Shown: positions 4,248 through 63,376, numbered from the stretch's first letter. The stretch: 64,000 bases of DNA from a virus (IMGVR_UViG_3300031853_000008:1-64000), one strand, 5' to 3'. The notes: generated by a model from the letters alone, not told the origin. Program-made: numbers and translations.

Positions 4248-4338
4248 TAGGGATGCCCGGACTCGAACCGGGATCACACCTATCTTCAGACGACTAGTAG
4301 TGTTTCACGTCCATCTCTACCTGTTGAGCTACATCCCC
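4248..4338 (-). tRNA. tRNA-like gene, 91 nt; canonical acceptor stem (GGGGATG/CATCCCT), D arm and T arm (CCCGG-TTCGAGT-CCGGG), but the anticodon stem GGACG/CGTCT encloses a 15-nt loop; isotype undetermined
   Basis: Folded by hand from the reverse complement. Length is in the type II range. The loop contains CTACTAG. Confidence 0.4.
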
Positions 4339-12224: not shown

Positions 12225-12743
12225 TTAAATTGCTTCATCATAAGCGGATTCTTTTGAGACAAGATTTCCTTTATCGTCATGTTCATAAATGTGTTGGTTT
12301 CTGCTCCCCCGGAAAGCGATTAAAAGATCTCGCTTATCATACTCAAACCGCCCATCAACGATAGTATCCGCAAGATTCAGAACATCCTTGCGGGTTTGAT
12401 TATCCCCGCTAAGAATATCAGCGACATTGAACCCTGTATACACCCAGACTTTTTTATCGGGGTAAACATTTTTAATAGTTTTAATTAAATCTTTGACATC
12501 TTGAACATTCTGGTCTGCTAATGGCTCTCCCCCAAGAATAGAAACTCTTTTAATATAATCCTTCCCAGCGAGAGATAAAAATCTTTCTATTGTTTCTTTT
12601 GTCCAAGGTTTTCCACCGTTAAAATCCCACGTCTCACTATTAAAACACCCCTTGCAATGGAAGGGGCAACCCTGTACAAACAGGGAAACCCCAACATTAT
12701 TACCGTTTGAGATGTCGCACTTATACCAATTTGCATATCTCAT
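12225..12743 (-). CDS. nrdG: anaerobic ribonucleotide reductase activating protein (radical SAM)
   Basis: CPFHCKGC cluster. Starts MRYANWYKCD with AATGGAGG RBS. Confidence 0.7.
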   Translation of the reverse strand: MRYANWYKCDISNGNNVGVSLFVQGCPFHCKGCFNSETWDFNGGKPWTKETIERFLSLAGKDYIKRVSILGGEPLADQNVQDVKDLIKTIKNVYPDKKVWVYTGFNVADILSGDNQTRKDVLNLADTIVDGRFEYDKRDLLIAFRGSRNQHIYEHDDKGNLVSKESAYDEAI

Positions 12744-12754
12744 AACGGCCTCCA

Positions 12755-13717
12755 TTACTCACAGTGCTTAACTCTTTGTTCCGTTTCTTGTTGTTTCCCG
12801 GCATTAAATGCGGTTTTATAATCCCCCGTTAAGTAGCCTGTCACTCTACGAAGTCTCCGAATATTCGTACTTCCACAAACAGGACATGCGTCACCGATTT
12901 CATCTGTGTATCCACAATTCATGCACATATCATTTGGAAGATTAATTGCAAAATATGGAATATCATGATCCATAGCATAATTTACAATTTCCTCCATTGC
13001 ATCAATGTTATGTTTGGCTGTAGATTTCAGTTCTACATATGTAATGCATCCAGCATTTGAATATCCAGTAAGTTGTGATTCAATGTCTATCTTCTCGAAA
13101 GGATTCATATCTTCCCAAACACTGCAATGAATCGAATTCGTGAAATATTCACGGTCAGATACATCTTTAATCACGCCATACTTATCTCTGAATTTTTCAA
13201 GAGCAGTGTGGCACAGATTCTCTGCGGGCGTGTAATAAACTCCAAAATTCAATTTATATTGCTGCTTGAATTCTTTGCATCTCTTACTGAACAACTCTTC
13301 GATCCTCTTGGCAAGATCCATCCCAGTAGGAGTTGTTTGGTCACACCCAATCAAGATTCTAAGAGTTTCTGCAAGTCCAAGTTGCCCAAGAGCAAGAGTC
13401 CCATGTTTCAATGCAGATTGAATTCCCTCTTCGGGATGATATCCATACATCGTTCCGTTCTCATACATAAACTTTGCGGAGTCAGGTGACTGGGAACAAA
13501 TCCAGTTGTATCTTTCAATCAGCATATCTTTTCCTTCATGAATTTTCTTATCTAGAATTTCCATGAAATTCTCTACAATATCCCCATCCTTCTCTTTCGC
13601 TTCCATAGCGAGTGTTGGAAGAATGATTGTTACAGGGCAGATGTTGCCTCGCCCATCTTTCAACTGAGGGTTGACCCCAGGTTCAGCATTAATGTCATAT
13701 CCATTGTACGTCCTACA
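12755..13717 (-). CDS. nrdD: anaerobic ribonucleoside-triphosphate reductase NrdD, exon 2
   Basis: Carries the C-terminal glycyl radical motif RRVTGYL and a CxxC zinc site. Joins exon 1 as STMG|CRTYNG. Confidence 0.7.
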   Translation of the reverse strand, partial: CRTYNGYDINAEPGVNPQLKDGRGNICPVTIILPTLAMEAKEKDGDIVENFMEILDKKIHEGKDMLIERYNWICSQSPDSAKFMYENGTMYGYHPEEGIQSALKHGTLALGQLGLAETLRILIGCDQTTPTGMDLAKRIEELFSKRCKEFKQQYKLNFGVYYTPAENLCHTALEKFRDKYGVIKDVSDREYFTNSIHCSVWEDMNPFEKIDIESQLTGYSNAGCITYVELKSTAKHNIDAMEEIVNYAMDHDIPYFAINLPNDMCMNCGYTDEIGDACPVCGSTNIRRLRRVTGYLTGDYKTAFNAGKQQETEQRVKHCE

Positions 13718-14465
13718 CATTTTATCTTGTGTCGCCACAGGCACTGACTATATCTTCTACCTTCCAGTAGCCTTCCGCTTCGGGGCGGTGTCCATCTCCG
13801 CCCCTACTCCCTTACATTCATCAGGGATAGTCGATACACTTTACATATACTCAAAGTTGTAATTATAGTGATTAGTCTTTTTGTCACCCTTTAATATAGA
13901 AGTAATTGTTTTCCTGTTTAATCCAAGTTGATTCGCGCATTCTCTGATGCTAGAGAATTCTTTTATTTCATTTGTATCTTTTGAAGTTGCCCTAATTGGG
14001 CATTTTCTATGCTATGGGTACAATCCCATGTCGTAAGCTTCTTGCGTATTGTATGCGTTAGTACACCATTCCAAATTTTCAATTGAATTATTTAATTTAT
14101 TCCCATCTTTATGATTTATCATTGGCAGAACATCAGGATTCGGAATAAATGTTTCTGCTATTAATCGATGCAATCGTATGTATTTTTTCTTTTTATTTAT
14201 CCGAAAACTTGTCATGTAATAGCCTAGGGAATCAATCCACCTACTTAACTTATGGAAACTTCCGTTCTTTAGCTTTTTATATGCATACTAGCTATCAACA
14301 TAAATATTAGGATATTTAGTTTCTTTCATTGTGGTCTCCTTTTCCACAACATCTGAGTATATGTCTTAGCACGGTCTCATCTTATTTCAAAGACCTAACC
14401 GTTAGCCCTTTCGGACACCCTTGGACAAGGTTCAAAAGGTTTTAGATGAGCTGTAGTTTACGCTT
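13718..14465 (-). other. group I intron in nrdD carrying an HNH homing endonuclease ORF
   Basis: Exon 1 ends in U and the intron ends in G. 3' core has R-like CGACTAT, a GGGGCGG..CCGCCCC hairpin (P8-like) and S-like GAAGATATAGTC. Splicing restores the conserved NrdD sequence. Confidence 0.6.
13841..14215 (-). CDS. HNH homing endonuclease (intron-encoded) with one in-frame TAG at 14012..14014
   Basis: HRLIAETFIPNP..NHKDGNKLNN HNH motif. After the TAG the same frame continues into the conserved NUMOD-like C-terminus (IKEFSSIRECANQLGLNRKTI) and ends at TAA. Confidence 0.6.
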
Positions 14466-15695
14466 ACCCATCGTTGATACATAAGTTCTGGGGTCATTCC
14501 TGTCATACCCCGCATTAACACTCCAATCTACATTACAATAGTTTGGATATAACCGCTTTGCCGTTGATTTAAGTGCAAGCCTATAAAGATCATAGTTCGG
14601 ATCTCCCGGCTTGCGATTTACCCCTTTCATACACTGAAAAATCCCGCATGGAAAAATAGGAGTCCGATGAAGAGCGCCGATTCCTTCAATAGAAACATCA
14701 AGAAGGGCTTTCGTTACCATTCTCCCTTCTGGCAAGGTGCATGTTCCGTAATTTACAGATGTAAATGGTAATTGGTTTCCAGATCTACTTTGAAGGGTAT
14801 TTAAATTATGGTACATCCCTTCAACCGCCTGATATGTTTCCTTTCGCGTCATATCCATAGCGTATTTATACGCTTTGTCATGGCTTCGATAAAAAGCATC
14901 ATCTATTCTTTTATCAATATCAAAGAATGCGTCTTCTAATCGAACTCTTTGTTCAATATATTGTATTCCATCTTTGAAATGCTTCCAGAACGATTTACGA
15001 ACATATGGCACCATAGTCCAATCAATATGCGATGCCGAGCAACCCCCGAATTCTTGCAAACTTTGGAGCTGGAATAGAACTGCAACAAGCTGAAAAGCAG
15101 TGTTAATGCTTTGAGCTGGCCTTACATCAGTTTGTCTAGTGTTAAATCCTTTTGCGAGGAGATCATCAAAAGGAATAGTCAAACAATTGTGCATTCCCAC
15201 CGCGTAAGCATCAAGATCGTGTATATAAATCTCATTATTCAGATGATTATTACGAGACATCTCACTCATACAATAATCAAGAGCATACTGTTTCATTAAC
15301 GTAGAACTTGCCTCGCCTCTTCTCCCCCCAAAACTCTTTTCATCAACATTCGCATTTTGATTCTGCACATTGCTTGCATCAATCTTTTCTGCGATTGTTC
15401 TCATCATTCGACTGTTTTTTTCTCTGGCAAGCCTTCTGTTTTCTCTATAAATAACAAATGCTTTTGCTACATCTTTACGGTTGCTTGACATCAACTTATT
15501 TTCAATAATGTCTTGAATATCTTCAACAGACATATCTTTTCCGCTATCGGAAATTAGCTTGGATATTTCAGTGGCCTTATCCCTCGTATACTTCGTCGTT
15601 TCCCCATCAACTTCTGTAAAAGCCTTGATAATCGCGTCCTTCACTTTTTGTCGATCAAACTCAACTACTCTTCCGTCACGTTTCTTTACTTTCAT
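14466..15695 (-). CDS. nrdD: anaerobic ribonucleoside-triphosphate reductase NrdD, exon 1
   Basis: Starts MKVKKRDGRVVEFD (ATP-cone). RBS AGGAAG. Confidence 0.7.
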
Positions 15696-16850: not shown

Positions 16851-17000
16851 TCCAAGGGTTCATGTCTTGCTCGGAATCTTCCATATCCCCATCAACTCTG
16901 ATTCCGCAATAATCGCATTCCCAATGCCCGAATCTATAAGCCATTACAATTCCGCATTCCGGGCAATATACTTTGTTCTGCATAGACATCACCCCGCATT

Positions 17001-17366
17001 CTACTTACAGGATTTAGTCAGATAATCTTCTATATTGTCCCAAAGACCAGTACTACAATATCCTTTAATGCTTTGTGCATCTTCCAGTTCGATAACTGTC
17101 ATCAATGCGTAATTTGCCATGTCCATCAATGTATCCCGGATACTTTCATCCCCCGAATCAACCGAATCATTCTTTGCCAGATTTACAAGCCTGTTATATT
17201 TATCTGATATTCTTGTAACGGCGGACATAAGCCCCAATGATTTATAAGTCCTTGAAAAACTGTCACCGTATGCTTTGTTTTTTTGTATATATGTTTTGTG
17301 TAACTCGTCACACAATATTTTATGTTTCTCTGTTTTTGAAACCATTTCTATAATCCTCCGTTTCAT
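17001..17366 (-). CDS. hypothetical protein (121 aa)
   Basis: ORF. Confidence 0.4.
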   Translation of the reverse strand: MKRRIIEMVSKTEKHKILCDELHKTYIQKNKAYGDSFSRTYKSLGLMSAVTRISDKYNRLVNLAKNDSVDSGDESIRDTLMDMANYALMTVIELEDAQSIKGYCSTGLWDNIEDYLTKSCK

Positions 17367-17886
17367 TTTTATAGTTCTCAGATCCTATGAATCCGCAACA
17401 TCTCATTTCCGGGCAAAATCCTCTGTATTCACATTCCGGCACCATACAATCGGCAAGTTCAGGCTCGACCGTGCGGACAGCCTCTACAACCGCCCTCCAA
17501 GCCCCTCTCGTCTCGTTTGCGGCCTGACTGCATAACCTCTTCCTGCTTATATTAATAAGCGCCTGTGCGTTCGCTAGGAGTGTCAGACAGACGCTTGCGT
17601 TCTGTGGGAGGTTATTTCTATCTATTCCAGTTCTATCGGTTCTCTCTGTTGAGACGTATGGAGTCACCCCGATGTGGTGGCGCACTAGATGCATTGCCAC
17701 CCAGTAAGGAATATCATGGATTCTTATCGTCAACTCGATATACCTTATAGGAGAATGCTCTGCTCTAAGTATCTTACTCTTCCATGTAGAGGAAGGATAC
17801 TTTCCTGTTTCCTTCCCCACGGTATTCATGGCGGCGTTTTTCACTTCCTGCCAATGGTCTTGATAGTTCAAAATCTCTACGTTCAT
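17320..17886 (-). CDS. thyX: flavin-dependent thymidylate synthase ThyX-like (short)
   Basis: AEHSPIRYIELTIRI ... RHHIGVTPYVSTER resembles the ThyX signature. Confidence 0.5.
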   Translation of the reverse strand: MNVEILNYQDHWQEVKNAAMNTVGKETGKYPSSTWKSKILRAEHSPIRYIELTIRIHDIPYWVAMHLVRHHIGVTPYVSTERTDRTGIDRNNLPQNASVCLTLLANAQALINISRKRLCSQAANETRGAWRAVVEAVRTVEPELADCMVPECEYRGFCPEMRCCGFIGSENYKNETEDYRNGFKNRET

Positions 17887-19922
17887 GCCGTCTTATCCTT
17901 CCTTAAGTCCGACTTGTAAAGATACTGATAATCCAGTATCCAGAGTTCATTAGTGTGTGGAATCGGCACCCAATTACCATTTTCATTGGCTCTTCTCTTC
18001 GGTTTATTCATATAGTTCCCAAGTTTTATCACATCTCCTTCAACAAGAGAATGATTAATAAATTCCTTCTTTGGGACTTTGAATGAATAATACCCAGAGT
18101 TTTTCAGAGAATATGCACTTATGATAGGCGTTGATTTTTTATCATCAACATCTCCGATAACACAAACTCCTGCCGCTTCCGGGTCCGTAACTGTTACGCT
18201 GTGCAGGATCTGCTGCTGATACGATGCCTTGTGAATCGCATCGAAATCCGTCACTTTTATCTTTTCAAGACCAGTTAGCATCCCTAACATATCCATCATC
18301 ATGTATGTGGCGGGAGTTTCTTTACCACAATACTTCTTAATTATATTTTCCCCGACCAGAAGATTTTTTACGCTACTTTTCTTTATTTGTTTTTTGAAGC
18401 GCTTATTTGCGTTATCATAAAGTTGCTCAAATGCTTTCAGTATTCCTAAAAGCTTCCTCGATGTACCGAACTCTGAAAAATAATCAATCTTAACAAGCTG
18501 CTCGATTGTTTTAAGCCCGATCCCAGTATTACTCTTGATAAATAAAATTAACGATGTAAATGTATCCCCATCAAAATCCTTTATCTTATACAATTCATCA
18601 GCTACTGTTTTCCCAAGTCCTTTGATTGCTGACAGGCTGGGGTTGATACAATGTGATTCTTTATCAATCGTAAACTGCCTGTTATCAAGCCGGAACTTAT
18701 AAGCACCTTCGTTTATCCCAAATGCCTTTTTCATTTCTGTCTTAAAGGCTACTACTTTATCTTTATCCCCTTTATCGGTGTACATCTGAAGCATAGTACA
18801 ATAAAACTCATACGGATAATGAGCTTTTGTATAGGCCCCATACACAGAATCATACGCATATGATACAGAGTGTGAGGCGTTAAACGAATACCTTGCGGAG
18901 GCTTCTACAATCGCCCAGGTCTTTTCGAATCCTCTCATAGATCCGACTTGTTTCATCCAACCTTCTGCTAATTTGGACTTAAGCTCTTCAAGTGCCTCTA
19001 GGGTGAATTTCTTTTTCGAAATCTTTTTAATAATGGCATAGGTTTCAGTTTGTGGAATGCCAAGCCATCCAAGATAACCCATTATTGACTCTTGATAAAT
19101 CATAAATTTCATAGAATCTTGTAATAAGTTATCTAATTCTTTTACCCCAGTTGTGTAATATTTTCTCTGAAGAAAAGTACTTAGCTGAGTTTTAAAGCCA
19201 GGGCGGAGTGCAGCGACAAAGGCACTCATCTCTCGCATATTCTTTGGTTTATACTCCATACAGGAATTTCTGCCAAAATCCGACTCACATTGATTAACGC
19301 CGCATGTGTAGCCTTTAGCGTAGATGTCCCAAGTTGCTTGATCACTCTCAACTAGTTCGTTCATCTCGTTAATAGAAGGTGTTGGAATTCCAACTTTCTT
19401 GAATATTTCATTAATGGCTAGCCACACATCAACCTTAAGTAAATCGTTCTTAAGATACTTGTATTTTTCGGCAACCATTCCATCTACAACGGTTGTTAAT
19501 ACATAATTTCCGTCACTGGTGGAACATCTAATAAGACCAATTTCGCTTTTAATATCACCGCCATAAATAAGATATCCACACGGGGCCTGTGACTTCGCGT
19601 TGATAATCTTCTGGTATTTTTTAGATTCGTCCAACATCTTATGATATTGTGGAGAAACATAATCATAGACGCTGATTGAATCCTTATCATCCGCACTAGC
19701 ATGTTTTAATGCTTTTTCATACTTAGCAAGCTGTTTTGTTACATTATTCGATGTTTCAAAATCAAGCCCCTGAGACTTCGCATACAACTTAAAGGCTGAT
19801 GATGCCTGTAACGGTTTATATGAAATCATCGGGTATGAATGCCCAGGAGTTCCATAAGCTTCTGTTAAGATATCATCCTGCGCTTTCGCAAATGGCTCAA
19901 CTGTCCCAAGGTTCATATCAAT
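17883..19922 (-). CDS. dnaE: DNA polymerase III alpha (DnaE-like), exon 2 (palm, fingers and C-terminal region)
   Basis: FNASHSVSYAYDSVYGAYTKAHYP matches the DnaE fingers motif. Begins IDMN.., completing the PDxDxD catalytic motif with exon 1. Confidence 0.7.
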   Translation of the reverse strand: MDMNLGTVEPFAKAQDDILTEAYGTPGHSYPMISYKPLQASSAFKLYAKSQGLDFETSNNVTKQLAKYEKALKHASADDKDSISVYDYVSPQYHKMLDESKKYQKIINAKSQAPCGYLIYGGDIKSEIGLIRCSTSDGNYVLTTVVDGMVAEKYKYLKNDLLKVDVWLAINEIFKKVGIPTPSINEMNELVESDQATWDIYAKGYTCGVNQCESDFGRNSCMEYKPKNMREMSAFVAALRPGFKTQLSTFLQRKYYTTGVKELDNLLQDSMKFMIYQESIMGYLGWLGIPQTETYAIIKKISKKKFTLEALEELKSKLAEGWMKQVGSMRGFEKTWAIVEASARYSFNASHSVSYAYDSVYGAYTKAHYPYEFYCTMLQMYTDKGDKDKVVAFKTEMKKAFGINEGAYKFRLDNRQFTIDKESHCINPSLSAIKGLGKTVADELYKIKDFDGDTFTSLILFIKSNTGIGLKTIEQLVKIDYFSEFGTSRKLLGILKAFEQLYDNANKRFKKQIKKSSVKNLLVGENIIKKYCGKETPATYMMMDMLGMLTGLEKIKVTDFDAIHKASYQQQILHSVTVTDPEAAGVCVIGDVDDKKSTPIISAYSLKNSGYYSFKVPKKEFINHSLVEGDVIKLGNYMNKPKRRANENGNWVPIPHTNELWILDYQYLYKSDLRKDKTA

Positions 19923-20187
19923 CCTTGCTACCCTCGGTTTCCCGATATTTATTAGGGGAGTAGACTATACCATTATCTCAATGAGATACCCATTGGTAGT
20001 CGTTGCAAGCTTTCCATTTAAGGACTATCTCTCAGGATTATCAAATCCTCAATCTTGTTACCATACTGTGGTGATTAGCCACACCGCGCTTCAGTTTCCT
20101 TTGCGTTTGGTAATTGAGGCTCTAATGACTTCCCCTGATATTCTGGGTTATTCAATACGGATCGCTCCGTAAGGCGACTATAAGTTA
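19923..20187 (-). other. group I intron (265 nt, no ORF) in dnaE
   Basis: Begins with TAA directly after exon 1 ...SLPD (last nt U) and ends in G. Contains GACTAC / P8 hairpin / TATAGTCTAC (P7-like). Removal restores SLPD-IDMN. Confidence 0.5.
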
Positions 20188-21498
20188 ATCGGGCAATGAT
20201 CTTGTTTTTAATATACGAACTTCGCTAAGAAAACGATCTGGGTAGAGTTTTACAGGAGATGTAAAACGGTCAACACTAGAAAATCCTAACAAAGAATTAA
20301 TGTAATACGATACCGCACTTCCTCTTCCTGTCTTCGTAATAACCCCGCCGTATTCTTTGCCGCGCTTAACCAACTCATAATCCAATAAGAAATAATCTGA
20401 CATATGAGTATTTATTACAGCGTTTAACTCATACTGAATGCCATCCTCGTATTCCTTCCATCTTGATGGATCAACGTGCTGCTTTTCTTTATCCCATGCA
20501 TCATAAATAATCGACTTTAACTTATTATCTTTCCATTCCTGTGACTTCCCTGGATACAGAGTTGGCAGCTTGATATCTTTCCCAAATGTGATATCATCAA
20601 AAGTTAAGATGATATCCGATGCATCAAGCATTTCATCTATCTCAGCTTCATTAAAAACACCCTGTTCGATTAATCTCTGCTTCGCCGTCTCTCGGTCGGG
20701 GTAATCCATGTACCACCCGACTTCATCCTCGTCATAAGTAAATCCGCGCCCCTCAAGATAATTATCTCTCTCAACGCTATCGGATTCATATATGTAGTGG
20801 CTGTCTAATCCGACAATCCATTTAATTCCATACTTATAATGTAACTCTTTTATGTGTTTATTAATATCTTTCTGTCTGTCTGTATTATGGCACTGGGTTT
20901 CCAAATAGAAACTGTCCCCAAAGTGTTTCCACAGCTTCATCGTAATATCATCAATGTCTTCGTACTGCCAGTACTTCACACAGGCCGTGGTTACCATCAC
21001 ATCTTCCGGCTTCAGTTGCTCTAACAACTCAAGATCAACTCTTGCCTGTCCGTAATATCCAGTGATATTTGCTTCGGAGAGGATACTATTTATCTCTCGC
21101 CGCCCCTGTTCATTCCGGGCCAGTAAGATAATGTGGCAGTTCGCCCTGTCTTTGCGGTACTTGGTTTCCGTGTTCCCCTTCTTATCGGTAACAGTATAAG
21201 GATATTCCTTTTGTCTGTCTTTTACCCAATAAGCTTCTGCTCCAAATACAAATTTTTGTTTTTGTTTATTATATTGTTCTTCCGTAATGTCGCCAATATC
21301 TAATCGAGCCTTAAGCTTTTGATTGAAATCGACGACGCTGTCATAATAAACATAATAGTTTGATTGAAAACCATGCTCTACAGTGCTAACTACTTGGCTT
21401 CCGACCTCAACATTTCTCTGGATGTACTTTTCAGGGGCAGTAGCGCAATCAATTACACAGCAGTTAGAAAACCAACTGTGTTTATGATAATTCTGCAT
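20188..21498 (-). CDS. dnaE: DNA polymerase III alpha (DnaE-like), exon 1 (PHP domain and first palm segment)
   Basis: HKHSWFSNCCVID..VEHG PHP motifs and GRGSAVSYYINS palm segment. Start 21498 with GGAGG RBS. Confidence 0.65.
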
Positions 21499-22261
21499 CC
21501 TCGTCCTCCATCTCTTTGTATAGGCAATCATTTCTAAAAGAACACAACCTATTACACCATAGGAACGATTTCTTAGCGGCAAATTCCTGGTCATTCTCGA
21601 TAAGATTTATTGTTTCAAGCACCCAGTTTTTGGTTTCTTCGCATTCATCTTCTCTATAGGGGATCTCTGTAATTGCTCCCTTATCAAGAAAATGATTCCA
21701 CGCAAGAGATTGTGCAGAAATACCGAATTTCTGTTTGACCCCCATAGCGTAAATGTAAAGTTGCTTTTTGTAATCGTTAAACTGATCAAGTTTACTCTTC
21801 AGCGGGGTGCCGTCTTTCTTTAGAAAATGACCACTACTCTTATGATCCACTATAATAGTCTCACCATTATTTTTATCCTCGATAATTAAATCAACACGCC
21901 CAATTATTTCATTTCCGTTCAGTTCAAACTCAACTGGGATCTCCGTCCCTAAAACTTTAAAATTTGCAAAAAACTTATCGATATCAAGAGTATCCAGGTA
22001 ATCGATAAATTGATCCTGTTTCGCAAGTACTTTTTCGATATCCGTATCTTCCGGGACTTCGGCTAAGAGATTATCAAGAGTATTCTGTTTTGCTTGCTCT
22101 ATTGTTTCTTTCCCAGAAAAAAGCATCTATAATTCATTATGGCAAAAGCTCCCGACAGCAGCCTGAAAGTTCTTTTCCTCGTACTGTTGTTCAACCTTAT
22201 GTAAATAATAGGCATATGGGCATTGTCTGTATTGGCTTAAACTACTGAAAGAATACTGCAT
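21482..22261 (-). CDS. PD-(D/E)XK Cas4/RecB-like exonuclease with in-frame TAG at 22127..22129
   Basis: N-terminus MQYSFSSLSQYRQCPYAY (44 aa, strong AAGGAGG RBS), then TAG followed immediately by ATG, then the D..EDK nuclease core and C-terminal CxxCxxxxxC. The N- and C-terminal Cys form the expected 4-Cys cluster only if TAG is read through. Confidence 0.55.
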
Positions 22262-26043: not shown

Positions 26044-26061
26044 GAGATTCTCCTTATATAG

Positions 26062-26133
26062 TCACCCGGTGGGGATTCGAACCCCAGTCTTGAGGGTTAG
26101 GGCCTCTCGTCTTGACCACTCGACTACCGGGCG
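26062..26133 (-). tRNA. amber suppressor tRNA, anticodon CUA (reads UAG); charged amino acid unknown
   Basis: 72-nt cloverleaf: acceptor CGCCCGG/CCGGGTG, U8A9, D arm GTCG..GAC, T arm TGGGG-TTCGAAT-CCCCA, discriminator A. Anticodon arm GAGG/CCTC with loop CCCTAAC puts CTA at positions 34-36. Position 33 is C rather than U. Confidence 0.6.
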
Positions 26134-28297: not shown

Positions 28298-28410
28298 GAG
28301 GGCAGTGTGGGTTCGAACCACAAACATCGCCTTTCAAGAGGAAAATGTTTTGCTGTTAGCACCTATACAAGATGCGTATTTTCGTGCTCTACCATTGAGC
28401 TACTGCCCTC
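28298..28410 (-). ncRNA. Y-RNA-like tRNA mimic
   Basis: Perfect acceptor stem with G-1 (gAGGGCAG/CTGCCCT), U8A9, D arm GCTC-AATGGTA-GAGC, T arm TGTGG-TTCGAAC-CCACA. In place of an anticodon arm there is about 63 nt of extra helices. Lies 23 nt upstream of rsr. Confidence 0.5.
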
Positions 28411-39150: not shown

Positions 39151-39259
39151 AATTTACTCTCCTATCTTAAATACTGAATACGTTGCGTCCTTGCACCAAC
39201 CAAATCTGGTTTCAAGTACTTCCCATGCTGTTTCGTCGGCTTCAAACTCTGTTTTGTAC

Positions 39260-39520
39260 CTATGCCCTCTGTAAACAACATCTCCGTTCCAATCCATTTT
39301 CTGTGAGCGTACAATTATATGCTTCGAAGTACATCAGTTTCTTCTCAAATGATTCCCCATCACCGTTATCGATATCTGCCGACATATTGTAATATCTGTC
39401 ATGTGGTCGCATCTTGCTCGGACACAGTGTTACTGGAAGTCCTGCATCATACAGCATCTTCGCTTCGCTTTTTTGCACCCGGTACATACAATTCACTCTA
39501 ATTCTATTCATTTCTCCCAC
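39260..39520 (-). CDS. hypothetical protein
   Basis: ORF. Confidence 0.35.
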   Translation of the reverse strand: MGEMNRIRVNCMYRVQKSEAKMLYDAGLPVTLCPSKMRPHDRYYNMSADIDNGDGESFEKKLMYFEAYNCTLTENGLERRCCLQRA

Positions 39521-51206: not shown

Positions 51207-51404
51207 ATGAGAATCAGAATTTATCCACTACATCATTACAATGATGACCTTTATGATGAGTGGTCGGAGAAAGCCGATGGAATCACTGACTACACAATCA
51301 ACAAGAATAATTTTGTTGTGCGTAGAGGCGACCAGTGGATGGGGATTTACAACCTTGATGACATTTCAAAGATTATTGTATCGGATGAAAAGGTGAATGA
51401 ATGA
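51207..51404 (+). CDS. hypothetical protein (66 aa)
   Basis: ORF trimmed to MRIRIYPL. Confidence 0.35.
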   Translation: MRIRIYPLHHYNDDLYDEWSEKADGITDYTINKNNFVVRRGDQWMGIYNLDDISKIIVSDEKVNE

Positions 51405-51496
51405 GTGAATACGGACTAAAGATACGAAACTACTCTGCTGCTCCGCTGTATATGTACAATCAGGGGGTGCGGGATCATTGTGACTACAAATAGGCG

Positions 51497-53158
51497 ATGT
51501 TGTGTAATTCTTTATTTCTTACGTTTCTGAAGAACAATGGACTTAAAAATTATAAGGATATTTCTACCAGGGACGTGATATGTATTGATTTCGGGTTTGG
51601 GACGAGATCGTACGATGAAGAGTACTCTCATATCAAAAAAATGCTTCAAAGTGCCGAAGAATCTGGGAATGATGAAAAAATCACAAAAATGAAGGATTTA
51701 TTGGCAAAAACAATCAAAAATAAGTCGAAATTTAAGAAAATTTCGAAAGAAAACCTTAGAATTTTGATGTATGAAAACGGCATTGATGTGACCTATAAGG
51801 GGTTTGGGGATGACTCAGATGAAAAGATTCACTATAAGATGTTGGAGAGAAATGCTTCCCATGCCAAAGTTGGGACTGTAATCTTCATCAATTCTGAACT
51901 TTATGATAAAGCCTATAACTGGTTAAGTATGGGAATCAAGTTGCCGAAGAAAAAGGCTAAAATCGTTGAGATGTCGGCATATATGCCATTGACAACTTCG
52001 ACGATAGTCGGCACCGTTCACATTCCTGTACAGGATATTTTAATCTTAAAGGATTATGATTCGTTCTATAAAACAGTTGCGGATGTGATTAAACCTAAAA
52101 AAGGCGATAACGGCAAGATGATGTGCTACGTGTCAAGAGAGGATACGGAAGTAAAGAATACTCTGTGGGACGGGATGGCACTTATTGAGTCCTCGATTCT
52201 GCCCGGATACTGTAATGGAATGGCGTTGCTGAGAAACCATTTTTTCAAGGCTTGTGCGTTTAAGACTAATATCCAGCTGTTCTTCCATGATTACTGCGAC
52301 AAACACGGAATTGACTATGAAACTTATCAGATTACCGATATGTTTGGATACAGGCATTATTTAAAAGATATCAAAATGATAACGACAGATAATGCTATTA
52401 AGTGGAAGAAATTTATCTCTCTTATGGGGAACAGCCCTACTGAGGCGTATGGCTACTGGTGCGAAAAAGTTAGAGCGGATGGGGAAGAATGGGGAATCGT
52501 AAAGACAGACCACCCAAGCAAACTTAGTTATATAGGGAACTATAACAGAATGAGTTACCAGATGCTCAATACTCTCCCGACCACTTATGAAGATGTAGGC
52601 AAAATAGCTTCTACAAGCATTAAATATGTAGAAGATATGAAAAACAACAATGATATTTACGAGAAGTTTCTGCGAGAGAATGCCACGGCAGTCAATCATT
52701 ATGAGATGTTGGCTGACCTATACAAACAGAATAAAGAGTTCGCAAGAAGCGTTATGTGGAAACGAGACAAAGCGGATATCATCCGGCATTATGTCAACAA
52801 TCTTCGCAAAGGGAAGATATTCGTTAGAGGCGATAATCTGACGCTTTGTGGAAATCCATATGCTCTACTGCTTTACAGCATGGGGGAAGCTCCTGAGAAT
52901 GACAAAACGCTGTTACATGAGGATGGAACTATACAGTGTTACACGAAACAGTTTGAAGATGGTGAGTATTTGTGTGCTTTTAGATCCCCACAGAATTCAG
53001 CAAACAATATAGCATATTTTCATAACCACTACTCTCCCGAAATGGAGAAGTATTTTGATTTTAGTAAAAATATAATTGCTGTTAATTGTATTGGGACTGA
53101 TATTCAGCCTCGGATGAACGGCTCAACAATCGGGGCCAGTTGTGCGGAAACGCACTTC
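51497..53158 (+). CDS. large protein of unknown function, exon 1 (554 aa)
   Basis: ORF ends at TAA, the first codon of a group I intron (the same arrangement as in dnaE). Confidence 0.5.
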
Positions 53159-53436
53159 TAAAAATATTCGGTGAAAATTGGAAAGCTGACAATGCCAGCC
53201 AATCAATTACCAAGCCAGTGAATATCAGAAAGTAGCTGGAAGGTTTAGAGACTAGGGGTTGAGGAGATACCCAATAACACCCCCACGAGTGCCGAATACC
53301 TTAACACATAATGGTGAAGGTAATGAGATAGTCCGATACTCTTAGGAAACTGAGAGCTGCCGTGGATAAAGAGCCACGGACATAACAATATGGCGATTTT
53401 GACAGCGATTTTGTTTTTGCAACTAACCAACAAGAA
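53159..53436 (+). other. group I intron A (3' boundary approximate)
   Basis: R element GGTTTAGAGACTA at 53243-53255, S element GAGATAGTCCGA at 53325-53336, P9-like hairpin CCGTGG..CCACGG. Confidence 0.55.
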
Positions 53437-53700
53437 ATGGTAAAGGGTTCAAAGATTGCATATAGAGATTTCCCAACGGTAGTGAATGCTATCCCTGAAA
53501 GTGGGTTGACATATGACAATACTCCAGATTCGTATGCACTTATGGATAATCGCTTTGCCAAGAGCCAACGTGCGATAGGGGAATCATCGAATTTGGCGAT
53601 GTTGGCAGTAACATATTATTTAACAAACATTGCGAATAATATAAACAATGAACAAACCAAACAATTGTATGATATTTCAGTAATTCTAGCAGTATTGGCT
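53437..53700 (+). CDS. large protein of unknown function, exon 2 (about 88 aa; 5' boundary lies between 53386 and 53440)
   Basis: ORF bracketed by two group I introns. Ends at TAA, which begins intron B. Confidence 0.4.
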
Positions 53701-54061
53701 TAATTAACTGGGCCGGTCGCATAGAAATATGCCCCATAAAATATCCTGTGAATTTCTGGAAAGCTAAGAGTAAATGACTATGAATAAAGAACCTATGAAG
53801 ATGCCATTAGTAAACCGATATGAAAAATATAAATTGTAGTTATTTACTTATGCTAATCAGAAGCCAAGCCACTAAATCCTGTAGAAGTAAGTGGAAGGTT
53901 CAGAGACTAATCGGTGAGAAGGGGATCAATATCCGAACACGAGTGCAGGACACCTAAAAGATATTCTCAAGGTGATGATATAGTCCGATCTATAGGGAAA
54001 CCTATTGAAGCAACAGATAAATAGCTGTTGATGTAACGACAAGCAGTGCAGCATAGATAGT
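53701..54061 (+). other. group I intron B (3' boundary approximate)
   Basis: Q-like AATCCTGTAG, exact R element GGTTCAGAGACTAA at 53898-53910, S element GATATAGTCCGA at 53976-53988. Confidence 0.55.
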
Positions 54062-58878: not shown

Positions 58879-58974
58879 AAGACCCGAACAGCAAATTTAC
58901 AGGATAAATTATGATGACATTGAACGGATATGAACTTGGTTCGTCCCCGTTCTTTCCCTTTTTTGGGTCTTGCG
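58879..58974 (+). promoter_or_regulatory. conserved leader element copy L1 upstream of the late operon
   Basis: TTAAGACCCGAACAGCAAA ... TTTTTTGGGTCTTGCG. The termini match L2 and L3 and are mutually complementary. Confidence 0.4.
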
Positions 58975-58997
58975 CCATGATTAAGGAGGGAAGCTAT

Positions 58998-60052
58998 ATG
59001 GCTTTTTTGAAAAAAGTCCTGCCATAGCAGGAAATGAAAAGGCTTACCCTCAAGCCCCTAAGAGAACAATATACTGCTTTGGGGTAGGCTTATAACAAAA
59101 TTATGAATTATGAACTTCCTTATTGTGTCAAATGTGGGACATTTGGAAGTGCTACTCTCTTCTATCAAGATAGCAGATTTGCGAATGGGTATTTCCCTAT
59201 TTGCAAAAAATGTATTATGAAAATGGTATAGAACAGATAGAAGGATGATGATGAACCACACGAAACGAAGGAATCCGTTGCTAAAGTATTGAAAATGATG
59301 GATCTTCCGTTCTTGGAAGACCTTTATGATTCTTGTGTAAAGGCTATTGAGGACGGAACTGAAAAGCGAGGGTCTAAATCTTCGTTTATTAATTATGTGT
59401 CCGCTATCCGTTCTCTCCCACAGTATCATCGTTTAACGTGGAAAGATTCTGATTATATTTCCCAAGAGAAGGAAATTGAGAACGACGCTGATAATGAGGA
59501 TATTCTTGAAAAAGCGAGAGAACATTTTGGAACAACTTATACTAATCAAGATTTGAAATTCCTTTAGACTCAATATGAAGACTGGACTGCCAGATATGCC
59601 TGTGAAAGTAAAGCACAGTAGATTTTGTTCCAGAGGGTATGCTTTATCCAATTAGCACTGGACAAGGCTCAAAAATCTGGGAAAGAAACGAAAGATCTTG
59701 ATAAACAGCTTCAGGATGTGTTGACATCGCTTCAGATTAAACCTAATCAGAGTAACTCTAATGCTCTTACGGAAGCAAAGACGTTTAGCCAGCTTATTGA
59801 GAAGTGGGAAGCTTAGAAACCTCTCCCTGAAATATAGGATGATTTTAAGGATGTTGATCATGTTGGGAGATATATTGATGTGTTCTTTAAAGGACATCTA
59901 TCCAAAATGATGGGGCTTAAGAATGCGTTTTCTTCTATGTATGATAAATTCATGAAAAAATATACTGTTAAGAAGCCGGAATATGATGAGGATACCGACT
60001 CTGAAGAATTGTTTGATAAAATATTTGGCAATCCTGTGGAGAATAGGTCATG
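58998..60052 (+). CDS. late protein with N-terminal zinc ribbon (candidate small terminase subunit); 8 in-frame TAG codons
   Basis: ATG with TTAAGGAGGG RBS. A single frame runs 58998 to 60052. Every interruption is TAG and the final stop is TGA. Confidence 0.45.
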
Positions 60053-60115
60053 AGTGACGCTAAGAAATCTGTTAAATAGATAGAGAAAACCAAATAGCGT
60101 AAAATAATGTAGACG

Positions 60116-61813
60116 GTGGCTTGGAGAGCAAGCTACTATCGTGAAAATCCTCATCGATTCGTTTCTGAAGTATTATTCCCAGATGGAACTTTTAAGTTGA
60201 AATTGTTTCAAAAGATTCTTCTTTGGGCAATGATGCACTACAACTTTATTATGTACTTGGCGGCGCGCGGCCAGGGGAAAACGATGATAACTGCGTTGTT
60301 TTGTGTCGTGAGATGTATCTTATATCCGGGGACAAAGATAATTGTAGTAAGCGGTACGTTGAAACAAGCGAATGAATTGCTGTTAAAGATACAAGATGAA
60401 TTTATGCCGAAATCACCATTCCTATGTAATGAAATATAGTCTTGTAAAATTGGGCAGAATGACGCATCAATTTATTTTCGAGGAAATTCATGGATTAAAA
60501 CTCGCACAAGCACTTAGAACTCTCGTTCCGCAAGAGCAAATATTCTTATAGCGGATGAGTTTCGCATGATAGATTAGAAGATATTGAACACAGTTCTTCG
60601 AAAGTTTCTGACAAGCCCTCGTGAACCTGGATATTTGAATAACCCAGAATATACTCATTTAAAGGAACGCAATAAGGAAATTTATATGAGTTCTGCGTGG
60701 TTTAAGTCATCTTGGGCATATGAAAAGGCTATTGGATATACTAAGAATTTTTTCGATGATACAAAGAAATATTTTATCTGCGGGCTTCCATATCAGTTAT
60801 CTATTATGGAGGGCTTGCTTATGAAAGAACAAGTGCAGGATGAGATGAGCTAGCCGGATTGGAATGATTTATTGCAGTCGATGTAGATGGAATGCACCTG
60901 GATAGGTGATGTTGGAGATAATTTATTTCATTTTGATGATTTCAATAATAGACGGGTATTGAAGAGTTCTTTTCTTCCATTGAAATATTATAATGATAAT
61001 AGAAAAGTGCCATAGCCTCATTCAAAAGGGAAAAGGGTATTATCTCTTGATGTAGCTTTAATGAAATCATCAAAGTCTAAAAAAAATGATGCCTCAGCAT
61101 TATTCATTAACGATCTTACACCATCTACTAATACGAGTTATCATTCAAATATCGTTTATGCTGATACATTCGAGGGGTTAACAACTGACTAGCTTGGCTT
61201 AATTGTGATGAGATATTTTTATAAATATAAATGTACTGATTTAGTTATAGATACCAACGGTATCGGTTTAGGTGTCTATGACTTTTTATGTCGTGATCAA
61301 TATGACCCATCGACTGGGGAAACCTATCAAGCTATGACTTGTGCTAATGATCCAGATATGGCTGAGAGATGTCGTGTATAGGGGGCTAACAAGGTTATTT
61401 GGAGTGTAAAAGCAACCGCTTCATTTAACAATGATATTACTATTTTGCTCCGTAATGCTATATTAAATGGACGGATTAGCTTTCTTATATCTTAGGATGA
61501 TGCGGATGAGCCACTCAAAGATAAGCTTAAAGGATATGCAAAGCTGACCCCAACGGAACAAGCATTGTTAAAGAAACCTTACGCTCAGACAACTATGACA
61601 GAGTATGAACTCATAAAACTCAACCACTAGGTAAAGAATGGCAATATTAAAGTTTATTAGAGTTCTGGAATGCGCAAGGATCGCTACAGTTCATTATCGT
61701 ATAATTATTGGTGTGCGACTCAGCTTGAACTTAAGCTACGACCTAAAGAGTCACACGACAAACTTATCAGTTACTTTCCGATAAGGAAAGCAAGAGTTTA
61801 TAAATCATTTTAA
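60116..61813 (+). CDS. terL: terminase large subunit; 11 in-frame TAG codons
   Basis: GTG start. Walker A AARGQGKT, Walker B ILIADEF, nuclease-domain motif VIDTNGIGLGVYD, C-terminal KDRYSSL. One frame throughout, with interrupting stops only TAG (60437, 60515, 60575, 60851, 60884, 61013, 61184, 61379, 61493, 61628, 61658). Terminates at TAA. Confidence 0.75.
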
Positions 61814-61825
61814 GGAGGTGCATGA

Positions 61826-63376
61826 ATGCCACAAAATAGTGATAAGGTGTCAACTGCACCTACTAAGAAACAGCCTACTTCTGCGGAACTTCGCAAATGG
61901 TATGCGAATTATTCAAAGAAACAATAGAATTTTGATTCTATGAAAAATGCTTTGAAACGGCTTACTGATATTACGAAAAGTAGAAAAGAAAGAACTATTA
62001 ATACATTCTCAAAAGAGGATCTCAGAACTTATCTGAGAAATATAAGTTCCAGTGAAAAGCAGTTAAGAAATCTTTCGAGATATCTGTACTACCGTTCTCA
62101 TAGTTATTATAGAATCATTAACTATTATGCCAATATGTTTGACCTAAAAGCAAGGTCGGTTATTCCTACATATGATTTCACAAAAAATAAACAGGATGCG
62201 AAGAAGGTCACAAAACAGTTCTATACGACTTTGACTTATCTAGATCAAATGAACCTTCAGTATGAGTTCCTTAAAATATATCTCACTTGTTATAGGTAGG
62301 ATGTATTCTATGGTTGCCTGTACTGGGATGATACCGACTTCTTTATTCTCCCGTTGGACCCGGATTTTTGTAAAATTTCTGGCGTTTATGGGACAGGAGA
62401 CTTTTCATTCGCTTTCGACTTCTCCTATTTCAGAAATAGACAGGACGTTCTCGAATACTGGGGTGAGCCATTCCAATCTATGTATAACACATATGAGAAT
62501 GATACCACCAACAATAGGTGGCAGGACTTCCCGGAAGAATACTCTGTTTGCTTGAAAGCAAGGGCATAGGATTGGCAGACCGTAGTGCCCCCGTTCTCAG
62601 GGCTTTTTAATGAGATTATCAATCTTGAGGATCTGAAAGATATTCAGGCGGTGGCAGATGAGTCGCAGATTTACAAGCTTCTCTGGTTCGAACTTAAAAC
62701 CATCACAGGGTCGAAAGATGTTAATGATTGGGCGGTTGATCCAGACCTTGCTTTGGATTATTACGATAAACTTCAGAATGAGATTCCTGAGTGGGCTGAT
62801 GTTGCGATGGTTCCTGGGGAACTCAAGTCTATCGAGTTCAATCAAGACCAGGCGGATGATACAAACAAGGTATAGAAAGCTACTGAAAGTGTATTCAATA
62901 CTTCCGGCGGAGCGCAGATTCTTAATGCTGCTTCTATCTCTGGGACAACAGCTTTTACTGCCGCGATTGCGTCTGATACTGAATTTGCCGTTTCTCTCCT
63001 GTTGCCACAGACTTAGGCTTGGGTGAATCGTATGCTTTCGTATAAGATGAATAACCCCGCAAAGGTGAAATTCTTTGAGATAAGCATCTATACGAGAGAT
63101 AAGTTAAGAGATGCTCTTCTCAAGTCGAGTCAGTTCGGGCTTCCAAATAAACTTGCCATTAATACCCTGTTTGGATATTCCGAGAAAGATACAATGGCGA
63201 TGAATTTCCTTGAAGAGAATTGCTTGCAAGTCAGCACTAAATTTACTCCACTCCAGTCTTCCTATACAAGGAGTGCGGATGTTGACACAGATTCTATTAC
63301 AGGGGGAAGACCATCTAGCACATAGATAACAGATGACGGTGAAGCAAGCAAAGATAAGAGGGATAATGCGAAATGA
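61826..63376 (+). CDS. portal/connector-like late protein; 6 in-frame TAG codons
   Basis: AAGGAGG RBS. Four listed ORFs (61940, 62354, 62585, 63023) plus flanks are all in frame 2, joined by TAG only. Terminates at TGA. Confidence 0.5.

Follow-up and report, generated by a model that had tools for sequence, protein, structure and literature searches.

A T4 sunY-related group I intron in a phage nrdD gene with an HNH endonuclease gene that probably depends on TAG read-through

Closest described systems

The nrdD gene of anaerobic (class III) ribonucleotide reductase is the most frequently split ribonucleotide reductase gene of phages (PMC3653736); in Jug phages, it is split in 95 of 104 genomes, with splicing backed by metatranscriptomes (PMC12880540). 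Here, we describe the nrdD gene of a viral DNA stretch of 64,000 nucleotides (IMGVR_UViG_3300031853_000008:1-64000, in its full length referred to as the window). This gene is interrupted within its catalytic MGCR loop by a group I intron, which itself carries the gene of an HNH homing endonuclease with in-frame TAG codons. The described systems that come closest to this locus are nrdD introns, I-HmuI, phages that decode TAG, and phages with recoded intron endonucleases.

The nrdD (sunY) intron of phage T4 resides in the same host gene and is likewise a group I intron with P7.1 and P7.2. The P7.1 sequences of both introns are identical, and their 3' cores are 76% identical over 88 nt—with an identical run of 31 nt spanning P7 and P7.1. 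In both introns, P3 follows P1 with no intervening P2, and the J1/3 segments are similar (GUAAAA/UAAAA). However, the T4 intron is inserted at another site, about 230 codons upstream in nrdD (after ...AYE-), encodes I-TevII, an enzyme of the GIY-YIG type, close to the 3' end (P9 region), is devoid of the two hairpins that the window's intron has between P3 and P4, and belongs to a phage with the standard code. Among cultured phages, the closest nrdD (70% nucleotide identity) is that of Thomasclavelia phages TR-TP1 and TR-TP2 (PQ571309, PQ571310), whose MGCR motif is also interrupted by an HNH-encoding, group I-like element (27.9 bits in Rfam). Hereby, the insertion lies 4 nt upstream (ACCAT/.../GGGTTGT), the HNH gene is free of in-frame stops, and most of the intron is not alignable to that of the window. 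The TR-TP1 intron (L001, 3930-4820) contains CUCAUCUAAACAUGGG, which resembles the guide of the window's intron family folded onto an exon-like AUGGG.

For the endonuclease, I-HmuI (PDB 1U3E, HNH homing endonuclease) is the only solved structure that was matched (E=1.6e-12, residues 22-161). Both proteins are built alike, with the HNH domain followed by a linker and a C-terminal helix-turn-helix domain, whereas I-HmuI has another target gene, a presumably low sequence identity, and no in-frame stops. I-HmuI, the endonuclease of the intron in the SPO1 (Bacillus phage) DNA polymerase gene, nicks one strand.

Code 15 phages (crAss-like, Lak, phAss-1) resemble the phage of the window in confining in-frame TAG to late or structural genes, in carrying a phage tRNA(CUA), and in having early genes that the standard code can also translate. 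Their TAG codons align with Gln, as validated by proteomics (PMC9523058); in the window, on the contrary, it aligns with conserved Glu and never with conserved Gln. For the TGA-recoded Agate phages, Borges et al. have described a group I intron endonuclease of an early gene that prefers the recoded stop (p=1.3e-3) and have proposed that such stops hold back the endonuclease until late infection (bioRxiv 10.1101/2021.08.26.457843). The window shares with the Agate phages an early-gene intron endonuclease with in-frame recoded stops. The Agate case differs in that TGA encodes Trp and the evidence is statistical over a gene family, whereas in the window TAG apparently encodes Glu, the phage is SPbeta-like, and intron, structure, and site are defined. 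The preprint reportedly appeared later in Nature Microbiology (2022). The idea of an early gene whose intron encodes a recoded endonuclease is thus already published, and the window is a well-resolved further example of it.

Insertion site in nrdD

The borders of the interruption are 14466/14465 and 13718/13717, which places the insertion right after the Gly codon and before the Cys codon of the catalytic MGCR loop (Table 1). On the minus strand, exon 1 ends with TCA ACG ATG GGT (STMG), its final T being position 14466, and exon 2 starts from 13717 with TGT AGG ACG TAC AAT GGA (CRTYNG). These are the exon ends that a first-pass annotation of the window had proposed, and its expectation that joining them restores MGCR is borne out. 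The joined exons encode a protein of 730 residues, in which the Pfam family NRDD (PF13597) is matched in one stretch over profile positions 2-562 of 562 (E=2.5e-148), flanked by an ATP-cone at the N-terminus (PF03477, E=1.4e-18) and a glycyl-radical domain at the C-terminus (PF01228, E=9.8e-6). The expected junction reads ACGATGGGT on the exon 1 side and TGTAGGACG on the exon 2 side. The intron is preceded by U, bears G (13718) as terminal base, and contains GAAGATATAGTC. As far as can be reasoned from the sequence, there is no alternative junction that would combine MGCR, U at position -1, and G at the intron end. An intein was also considered and rejected—the insert contains stops in the nrdD frame, plus its own Shine-Dalgarno sequence and ATG.

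Intron structure and covariation

The secondary structure was drawn by hand on the window and tested on an alignment of 37 distinct members of the intron family, in which the distal part of P6 was replaced by a linker. A full core from P3 to P9 was found, including the P3/P7 pseudoknot and the R and S elements that form P7. The terminal G as well as the R-, P8-, and S-like elements of the 3' core, which the first-pass annotation had recognized, are present at the positions where it had located them. The pair of P7.1 and P7.2 is presumably a mark of subgroup IA. As the P6a helix closes around the open reading frame (ORF), the entire HNH ORF sits in the P6 loop.

Table 1 Coordinates of the intron, its host gene, its endonuclease gene, and the TAG-decoding components within the window.
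Feature	Position	Strand	Remarks
nrdD exon 1	14466..15695	minus	class III ribonucleotide reductase: ATP-cone and N-terminal part; terminates in ...STMG, with T as final base
nrdD exon 2	12755..13717	minus	first codon is Cys of MGCR; glycyl-radical motif RRVTGYL and stop codon at end
nrdG-like radical-SAM activase	12225..12755	minus	directly downstream of nrdD
Group I intron	13718..14465	minus	748 nt; related to T4 sunY intron; P7.1/P7.2 present; omega-G at 13718
Internal guide sequence	14445..14456	minus	CUACA/GCUCAUC; adjoining P10 and P1 guides
P1	14445-14451 x 14466-14472	minus	GCUCAUC x exon 1 GAUGGGU; U.G at splice site
P10	14452-14456 x 13713-13717	minus	CUACA, directly 5' of P1 guide, x exon 2 UGUAG
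P3	14433..14439 x 13771-13777	minus	CCUUUUG x CGGAAGG; pseudoknot with P7; compensatory changes in 5/7 pairs
Two extra hairpins, P3 to J3/4	14405..14430	minus	CCUUGUCCAAGG (14419-14430) and GUCCGAAAGGGC (14405-14416); absent from T4 sunY intron
P4 around P5	14371..14402	minus	P4 ACGGU/ACCGU; P5 GUCUU/AAGAU
P6a	14355..14364 x 13843-13852	minus	ACAUAUACUC x GAGUAUAUGU (final HNH ORF codons); perfect 10-bp helix
3' catalytic core	13746..13832	minus	P7 is GACUAU (13827-13832) x AUAGUC (13746-13751)
P7.1	13809-13826	minus	CCCU..AGGG
P7.2	13782-13804	minus	GGGGCGG..CCGCCCC
P3, 3' strand	13771-13777	minus
P8	13757-13770	minus
P9 hairpin	13726..13741	minus	CCUGUGGCGACACAAG
HNH homing endonuclease gene	13841..14329	minus	162 codons and TAA (13841-13843); I-HmuI-like
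In-frame TAG 1	14288..14290	minus	codon 14; missed by the first-pass annotation
In-frame TAG 2	14012..14014	minus	codon 106; linker between HNH and DNA-binding domains
Suppressor tRNA	26061..26133	minus	anticodon CUA; ARAGORN and Rfam; within replication-gene block
Three TAG-recoded late genes	58911..63376	plus	consecutive; 28 in-frame TAGs

Across the 37 members, 96.4% of the cells form standard pairs, versus 36-46% when the partners are slid by 1-3 columns. Changes on both sides of a pair, i.e., compensatory changes, occur in 31 of the 64 pairs, and the observed values were reached by none of 500 shuffles (0/500). In alignment A1, the poorly aligned 3' half of L083, a more distant intron at the same site, represents noise. 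The U.G pair of P1 at the splice site is kept in 37/37 relatives, and 90.6% of the P10 cells are paired across the family. The distal pair of P1 shows covariation between the guide and the third, synonymous position of the exon's Thr codon (CG 14, GC 12, AU 6)—hence, the guide sequence tracks its exon.

Two covariance models, one for the 5' half and one for the 3' half of the intron, were built from 24 relatives, leaving out the window. Each gives a single match in the window, at 14365-14474 for the 5' half (113.5 bits, E=2e-20) and at 13709-13842 for the 3' half (148.3 bits, E=4e-34); neither shows a further match in the window below E=0.1. When the 5' half was searched by blastn against phage records, only a chance match of 22 nt was returned. 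The group I intron put forward by the first-pass annotation is thus upheld by the family models, by the covariation from P1 to P10, and by the likeness of the 3' core to T4. These data support a T4-like group I intron with P7.1/P7.2, which is predicted to splice.

The HNH endonuclease gene

The endonuclease gene starts with ATG (14329-14327), six bases after AAGGAG (AAAGGAG in the sequence). The loop of a predicted 7-bp hairpin (14327-14349; minimum free energy structure with six Watson-Crick pairs and a closing G.U) contains this Shine-Dalgarno sequence. HNH_3 (PF13392) is matched at residues 53-95 with 37.5 bits (cut-off 24.8) and an intact NHKDGN...N...N motif, and the I-HmuI NUMOD-like family (PF22083) at residues 121-154 with 37.7 bits (cut-off 27, E=1.5e-9). 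The latter DNA-binding domain follows the TAG at codon 106 in the same frame. The first-pass annotation had described an HNH ORF that runs through this TAG into a C-terminal module and ends at TAA, which holds; the extent that it gave to the ORF does not, since the start lies farther upstream and a second TAG occurs at codon 14. With both TAGs read as sense, the length of 162 codons agrees with that of more than 100 database homologues (161-165 aa, 55-69% identity), which cover the query end to end. One of these homologues, 65% identical, is found in the same nrdD intron context in phage contigs of roughly 100 kb. TAA, TGA, and frameshifts are all absent from the interior of the ORF. Under the standard code, however, the frame is not uninterrupted, and it could yield only a peptide of 13 residues or a fragment of 67 residues that lacks the DNA-binding domain. 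The domains confirm the assignment to the I-HmuI-type homing endonucleases, for which cleavage and homing would be the expected activities.

The intron family

A degenerate P7-P7.1 pattern led to 68 contigs of IMG/VR. The intron occupies the identical site in 48 of the 50 loci with parsable flanks: exon 1 ends with ...ATGGGT, the last intron base is G, and exon 2 starts with TGY AGR. A homologous intron at the identical site in about 48 independent contigs excludes chance. Introns without an ORF are 238-330 nt long, and those with an ORF or an ORF remnant 577-1135 nt. Even in distant nrdD genes (L083-L085, 25-33% protein identity), a related HNH-bearing intron is found at the same codon boundary. 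A further 75 relatives bear an uninterrupted nrdD. These alleles keep the ACN ATG GGN TGY site and are candidate targets that the HNH endonuclease might cleave. The Gly codon is always GGT in intron-bearing alleles, whereas GGA, GGC, GGG, and GGT occur 31, 20, 14, and 10 times, respectively, in the 75 intron-less ones; this fits the need of group I introns for U at position -1.

The contents of the P6 loop differ by contig: most encode a GIY-YIG enzyme of about 186 aa, some an enzyme of 250-280 aa, and two an HNH enzyme like that of the window. In eight contigs (L101, L105, L114, L117, L122, L123, L148, and L151), the endonuclease ORF is broken by TAG alone. Reading TAG as sense yields lengths within the span seen for the family's uninterrupted ORFs—exactly 186 aa in L101 and L114, and 156 aa in L117. 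For L162, three TGAs, each in a Trp column, are the only breaks in the ORF, which reaches exactly 186 aa when TGA is sense. The TAG columns of the family hold Gln in L105/L148 and L123 (including the Q of YIGQT) and Glu in L122. ORFs that are broken only by the recoded stop, and whose length is restored by reading it as sense, argue strongly against pseudogene decay and for read-through. They support the view that the intron endonucleases follow the code of the resident phage across one intron family, as far as comparison of their genes can tell.

Unrelated endonuclease genes in one and the same P6 loop (L097-L164, MG/CR site) represent endonuclease swapping. Furthermore, the nrdD genes of L097, L124, L134, L140, L143, L146, L147, and L159 come in four to six pieces with further insertions elsewhere; segment boundaries of such multiply cut genes, as located by tblastn, lie near residues 162/170, 217, 299/308, 521, and 575.

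Decoding of TAG by the phage

The three late genes encode a phrog_3314 protein with 8 in-frame TAGs, the large terminase with 14, and a protein in the portal position with 6, the last of which matched no Pfam family. This corresponds to 18.9 TAGs per 1000 codons. The minus-strand block below 45 kb, which comprises nrdD/nrdG, DNA polymerase, and primase-helicase, has 0.3 per 1000 (3 TAGs in 9,762 codons, each at the edge of an ORF). The HNH gene lies within this block but bears 12.3 per 1000 (2 TAGs in 162 codons; Fisher p=0.0026 versus the block). As the surrounding ~9,800 codons are nearly free of TAG, something appears to bar TAG from early-translated genes but not from the HNH gene. The gain in ORF length with TAG as sense, compared with the other stops, is a crude measure and not discriminating in this AT-rich sequence. 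Even the selfish element had been suggested by the first-pass annotation to be adapted to the recoded code; the tRNA(CUA), the TAG-rich late genes, the TAG density of the HNH gene, and the family-wide fit to the code lend support to this suggestion. In two further ORFs, 16989-17366 (minus) and 39242-39511 (minus), a TAG stands 3-5 codons ahead of the next TAA or TGA. There, TAG may still stop translation early in infection, with the nearby stop as a back-up once TAG is decoded.

The meaning of TAG was read from alignment columns. An alignment of the large terminase with 119 homologues has Glu as the leading residue in 12 of 14 TAG columns, and in five of these it is found in 116-119 of 120 sequences. 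Seen from the other side, TAG occupies 10 of the 28 columns with consensus Glu and 0 of the 20 columns with consensus Gln. The phrog_3314 protein shows the same picture, as Glu leads 7/8 TAG columns (119/119 in two of them), and among the six TAG columns of the portal-position gene Glu leads two and Asp/Glu two more. Over all three late genes, Glu ranks first in 21 of 28 TAG columns and Gln in none. At strictly conserved positions, Gln is only found in the public copies P0001, P0121, and P0391, which were translated by a pipeline with Gln at every TAG (as code 15). The whole-protein counts of Glu and Gln in the terminase are ambiguous, the query being low in both, and the column-wise test was used instead. 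The closest cultured relatives of the terminase are SPbeta-like and other Bacillota phages.

The suppressor tRNA bears a variable loop of 4 nt and a GUC/GAC D-stem with U11-A24, as in E. coli tRNA-Glu. Within a small panel of tRNAs, E. coli tRNA-Glu is also the best match by score, but all identities range between 39 and 49 of 72, which makes this weak evidence. Its anticodon loop CCCUAAC carries C33 in place of the near-universal U, and a similar tRNA with the same anticodon loop is present in a second phage contig (L062, 7449-7521). A blastn search of the tRNA against phage records gave no match, and when bacterial and archaeal genomes were scanned for exact copies of its D-arm, a single irrelevant archaeal match came up.

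TAG in this phage, judged from these columns, most likely encodes glutamate instead of the usual Gln. Outside ciliates, decoding of TAG as Glu is not known to occur; the nuclear code of peritrich ciliates is table 30. For phages, a full-text literature search found no report of TAG to Glu, and Borges et al. state that they observed only TAG to Gln and TGA to Trp (bioRxiv 10.1101/2021.08.26.457843). A plausible route starts from the many Bacillota that have no glutaminyl-tRNA synthetase: a CUA suppressor would be charged there by glutamyl-tRNA synthetase (GluRS) and, if devoid of a U1-A72 pair, would escape the transamidation to Gln by GatCAB. This route follows from textbook rules of tRNA identity.

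Proposed mechanism and alternatives

From the anatomy, the homology, the covariation of the structure, the distribution of TAG, and its Glu-like meaning, we infer splicing, read-through, nuclease activity, and an effect on timing. After transcription, the guide would pair with both exon ends—via P1 with its U.G wobble and via P10—and the ribozyme core would remove the 748 nt and join the exons, yielding full-length NrdD. The HNH enzyme expressed from the P6 loop might then cut the intron-less nrdD of co-infecting relatives, into which the intron would be copied. Under the standard code of the host, only the two short products described above would arise. The full enzyme of 162 residues would require the phage tRNA(CUA), most likely inserting glutamate, and its synthesis would hence be tied to the code switch, i.e., to the period of late-gene translation. 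With a probability of roughly 0.8, the element is a mobile T4 sunY-related intron in the nrdD gene of a phage that is SPbeta-like and infects Bacillota, and its HNH gene depends on TAG read-through. The more specific proposal, that of an SPbeta-like gut phage which reads TAG as Glu by a tRNA-Glu-like suppressor and whose HNH gene shares this code—so that the selfish element is under a code-switch timer—is still probable, if less firmly so.

Several observations speak against this picture. Within the structure, one pair of P9 is a C.A mismatch in the window. The Rfam group I model (RF00028), which the first-pass annotation had named as a check on its proposal, gives the window intron 16 bits (E=0.54), below the gathering score of 50, and its alignment covers only the 3' part of the intron, including GAAGAUAUAGUC. 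The same model gives the T4 nrdD intron 105 bits. It misses this intron family even where there is no ORF (L137, L121, L102, L129, L134, L150, L152, and L159): L137 gives no match and L121 a sub-threshold 17.9 bits. As RF00028 fails on ORF-less relatives too while T4 scores well, the fault lies in the model and not in the sequence of the window, and we take the low score as a weakness of the model and not as a refutation. The two hairpins between P3 and J3/4 are the main difference from T4 sunY and the suspected cause of this failure. As for the timing, the early or replication genes share their strand block with the gene of the tRNA(CUA), and the imposed delay may therefore be short. Finally, both TAGs of the HNH gene stand in poorly conserved columns: the one at codon 14 is variable, and the one at codon 106 is mostly Ser, with Lys in some close relatives. 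Hence, the inserted amino acid is not confirmed by these TAGs, and they give no proof that read-through is needed.

The weak conservation of these columns bears on what might be the most serious alternative, namely that the TAGs are read through without any regulatory role. GAG to TAG changes would then be neutral, and the intron gene would drift into the resident code like the late-expressed genes. The TAG density of the HNH gene (12 per 1000) is indeed near that of the late genes (19 per 1000), and the endonuclease genes of the family adopt whichever code the resident phage uses. The neighboring codons, on the contrary, are almost without TAG, unlike the HNH gene, and the preferential use of the recoded stop in the intron endonuclease family of Borges et al. 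also disagrees with mere drift. We regard this alternative as the less probable option.

Two in-frame stops could also signal an endonuclease gene that is starting to decay after fixation, so that the TAGs terminate and the intron survives merely as a splicing element. It is general knowledge that homing endonuclease genes often degenerate after fixation, some relatives carry introns without an ORF or with remnants (e.g., L157), and TAG 106 stands in for a mostly conserved Ser. Decay is nevertheless unlikely: both breaks are TAG, with TAA, TGA, and frameshifts absent, the length equals that of intact homologues at 68-69% identity, and both Pfam domains score above their cut-offs. Moreover, the phage decodes TAG according to the columns of its late genes, and the pattern of breaks by recoded stops only recurs in at least eight other introns. 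Lastly, it is very improbable that nrdD is an unspliced split gene for two polypeptides with a free-standing HNH gene in between—like the nrdA of Aeh1 split by mobE—for although an in-frame ATG (the last three intron bases) directly before the Cys codon could start the C-terminal half, and TR-TP1 is annotated with two NrdD coding sequences and an HNH gene, all group I helices covary, including P1 and P10 to both exons, position -1 is always U and the last intron base always G, most relatives have ACG in place of the terminal ATG, and the split would lie within the catalytic MGCR loop.

Other elements in the window

Two more group I introns are found on the plus strand at 53114-53356 and 53691-54007. 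They score 76 and 91 bits in Rfam, above the gathering score, are apparently ORF-less, and split a large gene (phrog_8308), whose exon 1 lies at 51401-53161. Two over-long tRNA-like genes on the minus strand, 4248-4338 and 28298-28409, have lengths of 91 and 112 nt and score 37 and 42 bits with the Rfam tRNA model; ARAGORN called the first with a 2-base 'anticodon' and missed the second. Possibly, these genes encode tRNAs that carry inserts, of which other recoded phages offer reported cases. A 696-aa ORF (17883-19973, minus) matches DNA polymerase phrog_405 over profile positions 461-1044 of 1190, the N-terminal part of the profile being absent, and a 469-aa ORF (20185-21594, minus) lies about 210 nt upstream of it.

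Implications

The locus provides defined splice sites, a guide, helices, an ORF position, a target site, and a family of about 50 introns, which makes the idea that stops delay an endonuclease directly testable. For annotation, it reveals that a widespread family of phage introns escapes the group I model of Rfam, with the consequence that split nrdD genes are annotated as two genes.

If TAG indeed encodes Glu, amber recoding in phages would not be limited to Gln, and automated translation with code 15 would err at about 2% of the positions in the late proteins of such phages. The choice of the amino acid may, then, mirror which host synthetase can be hijacked.

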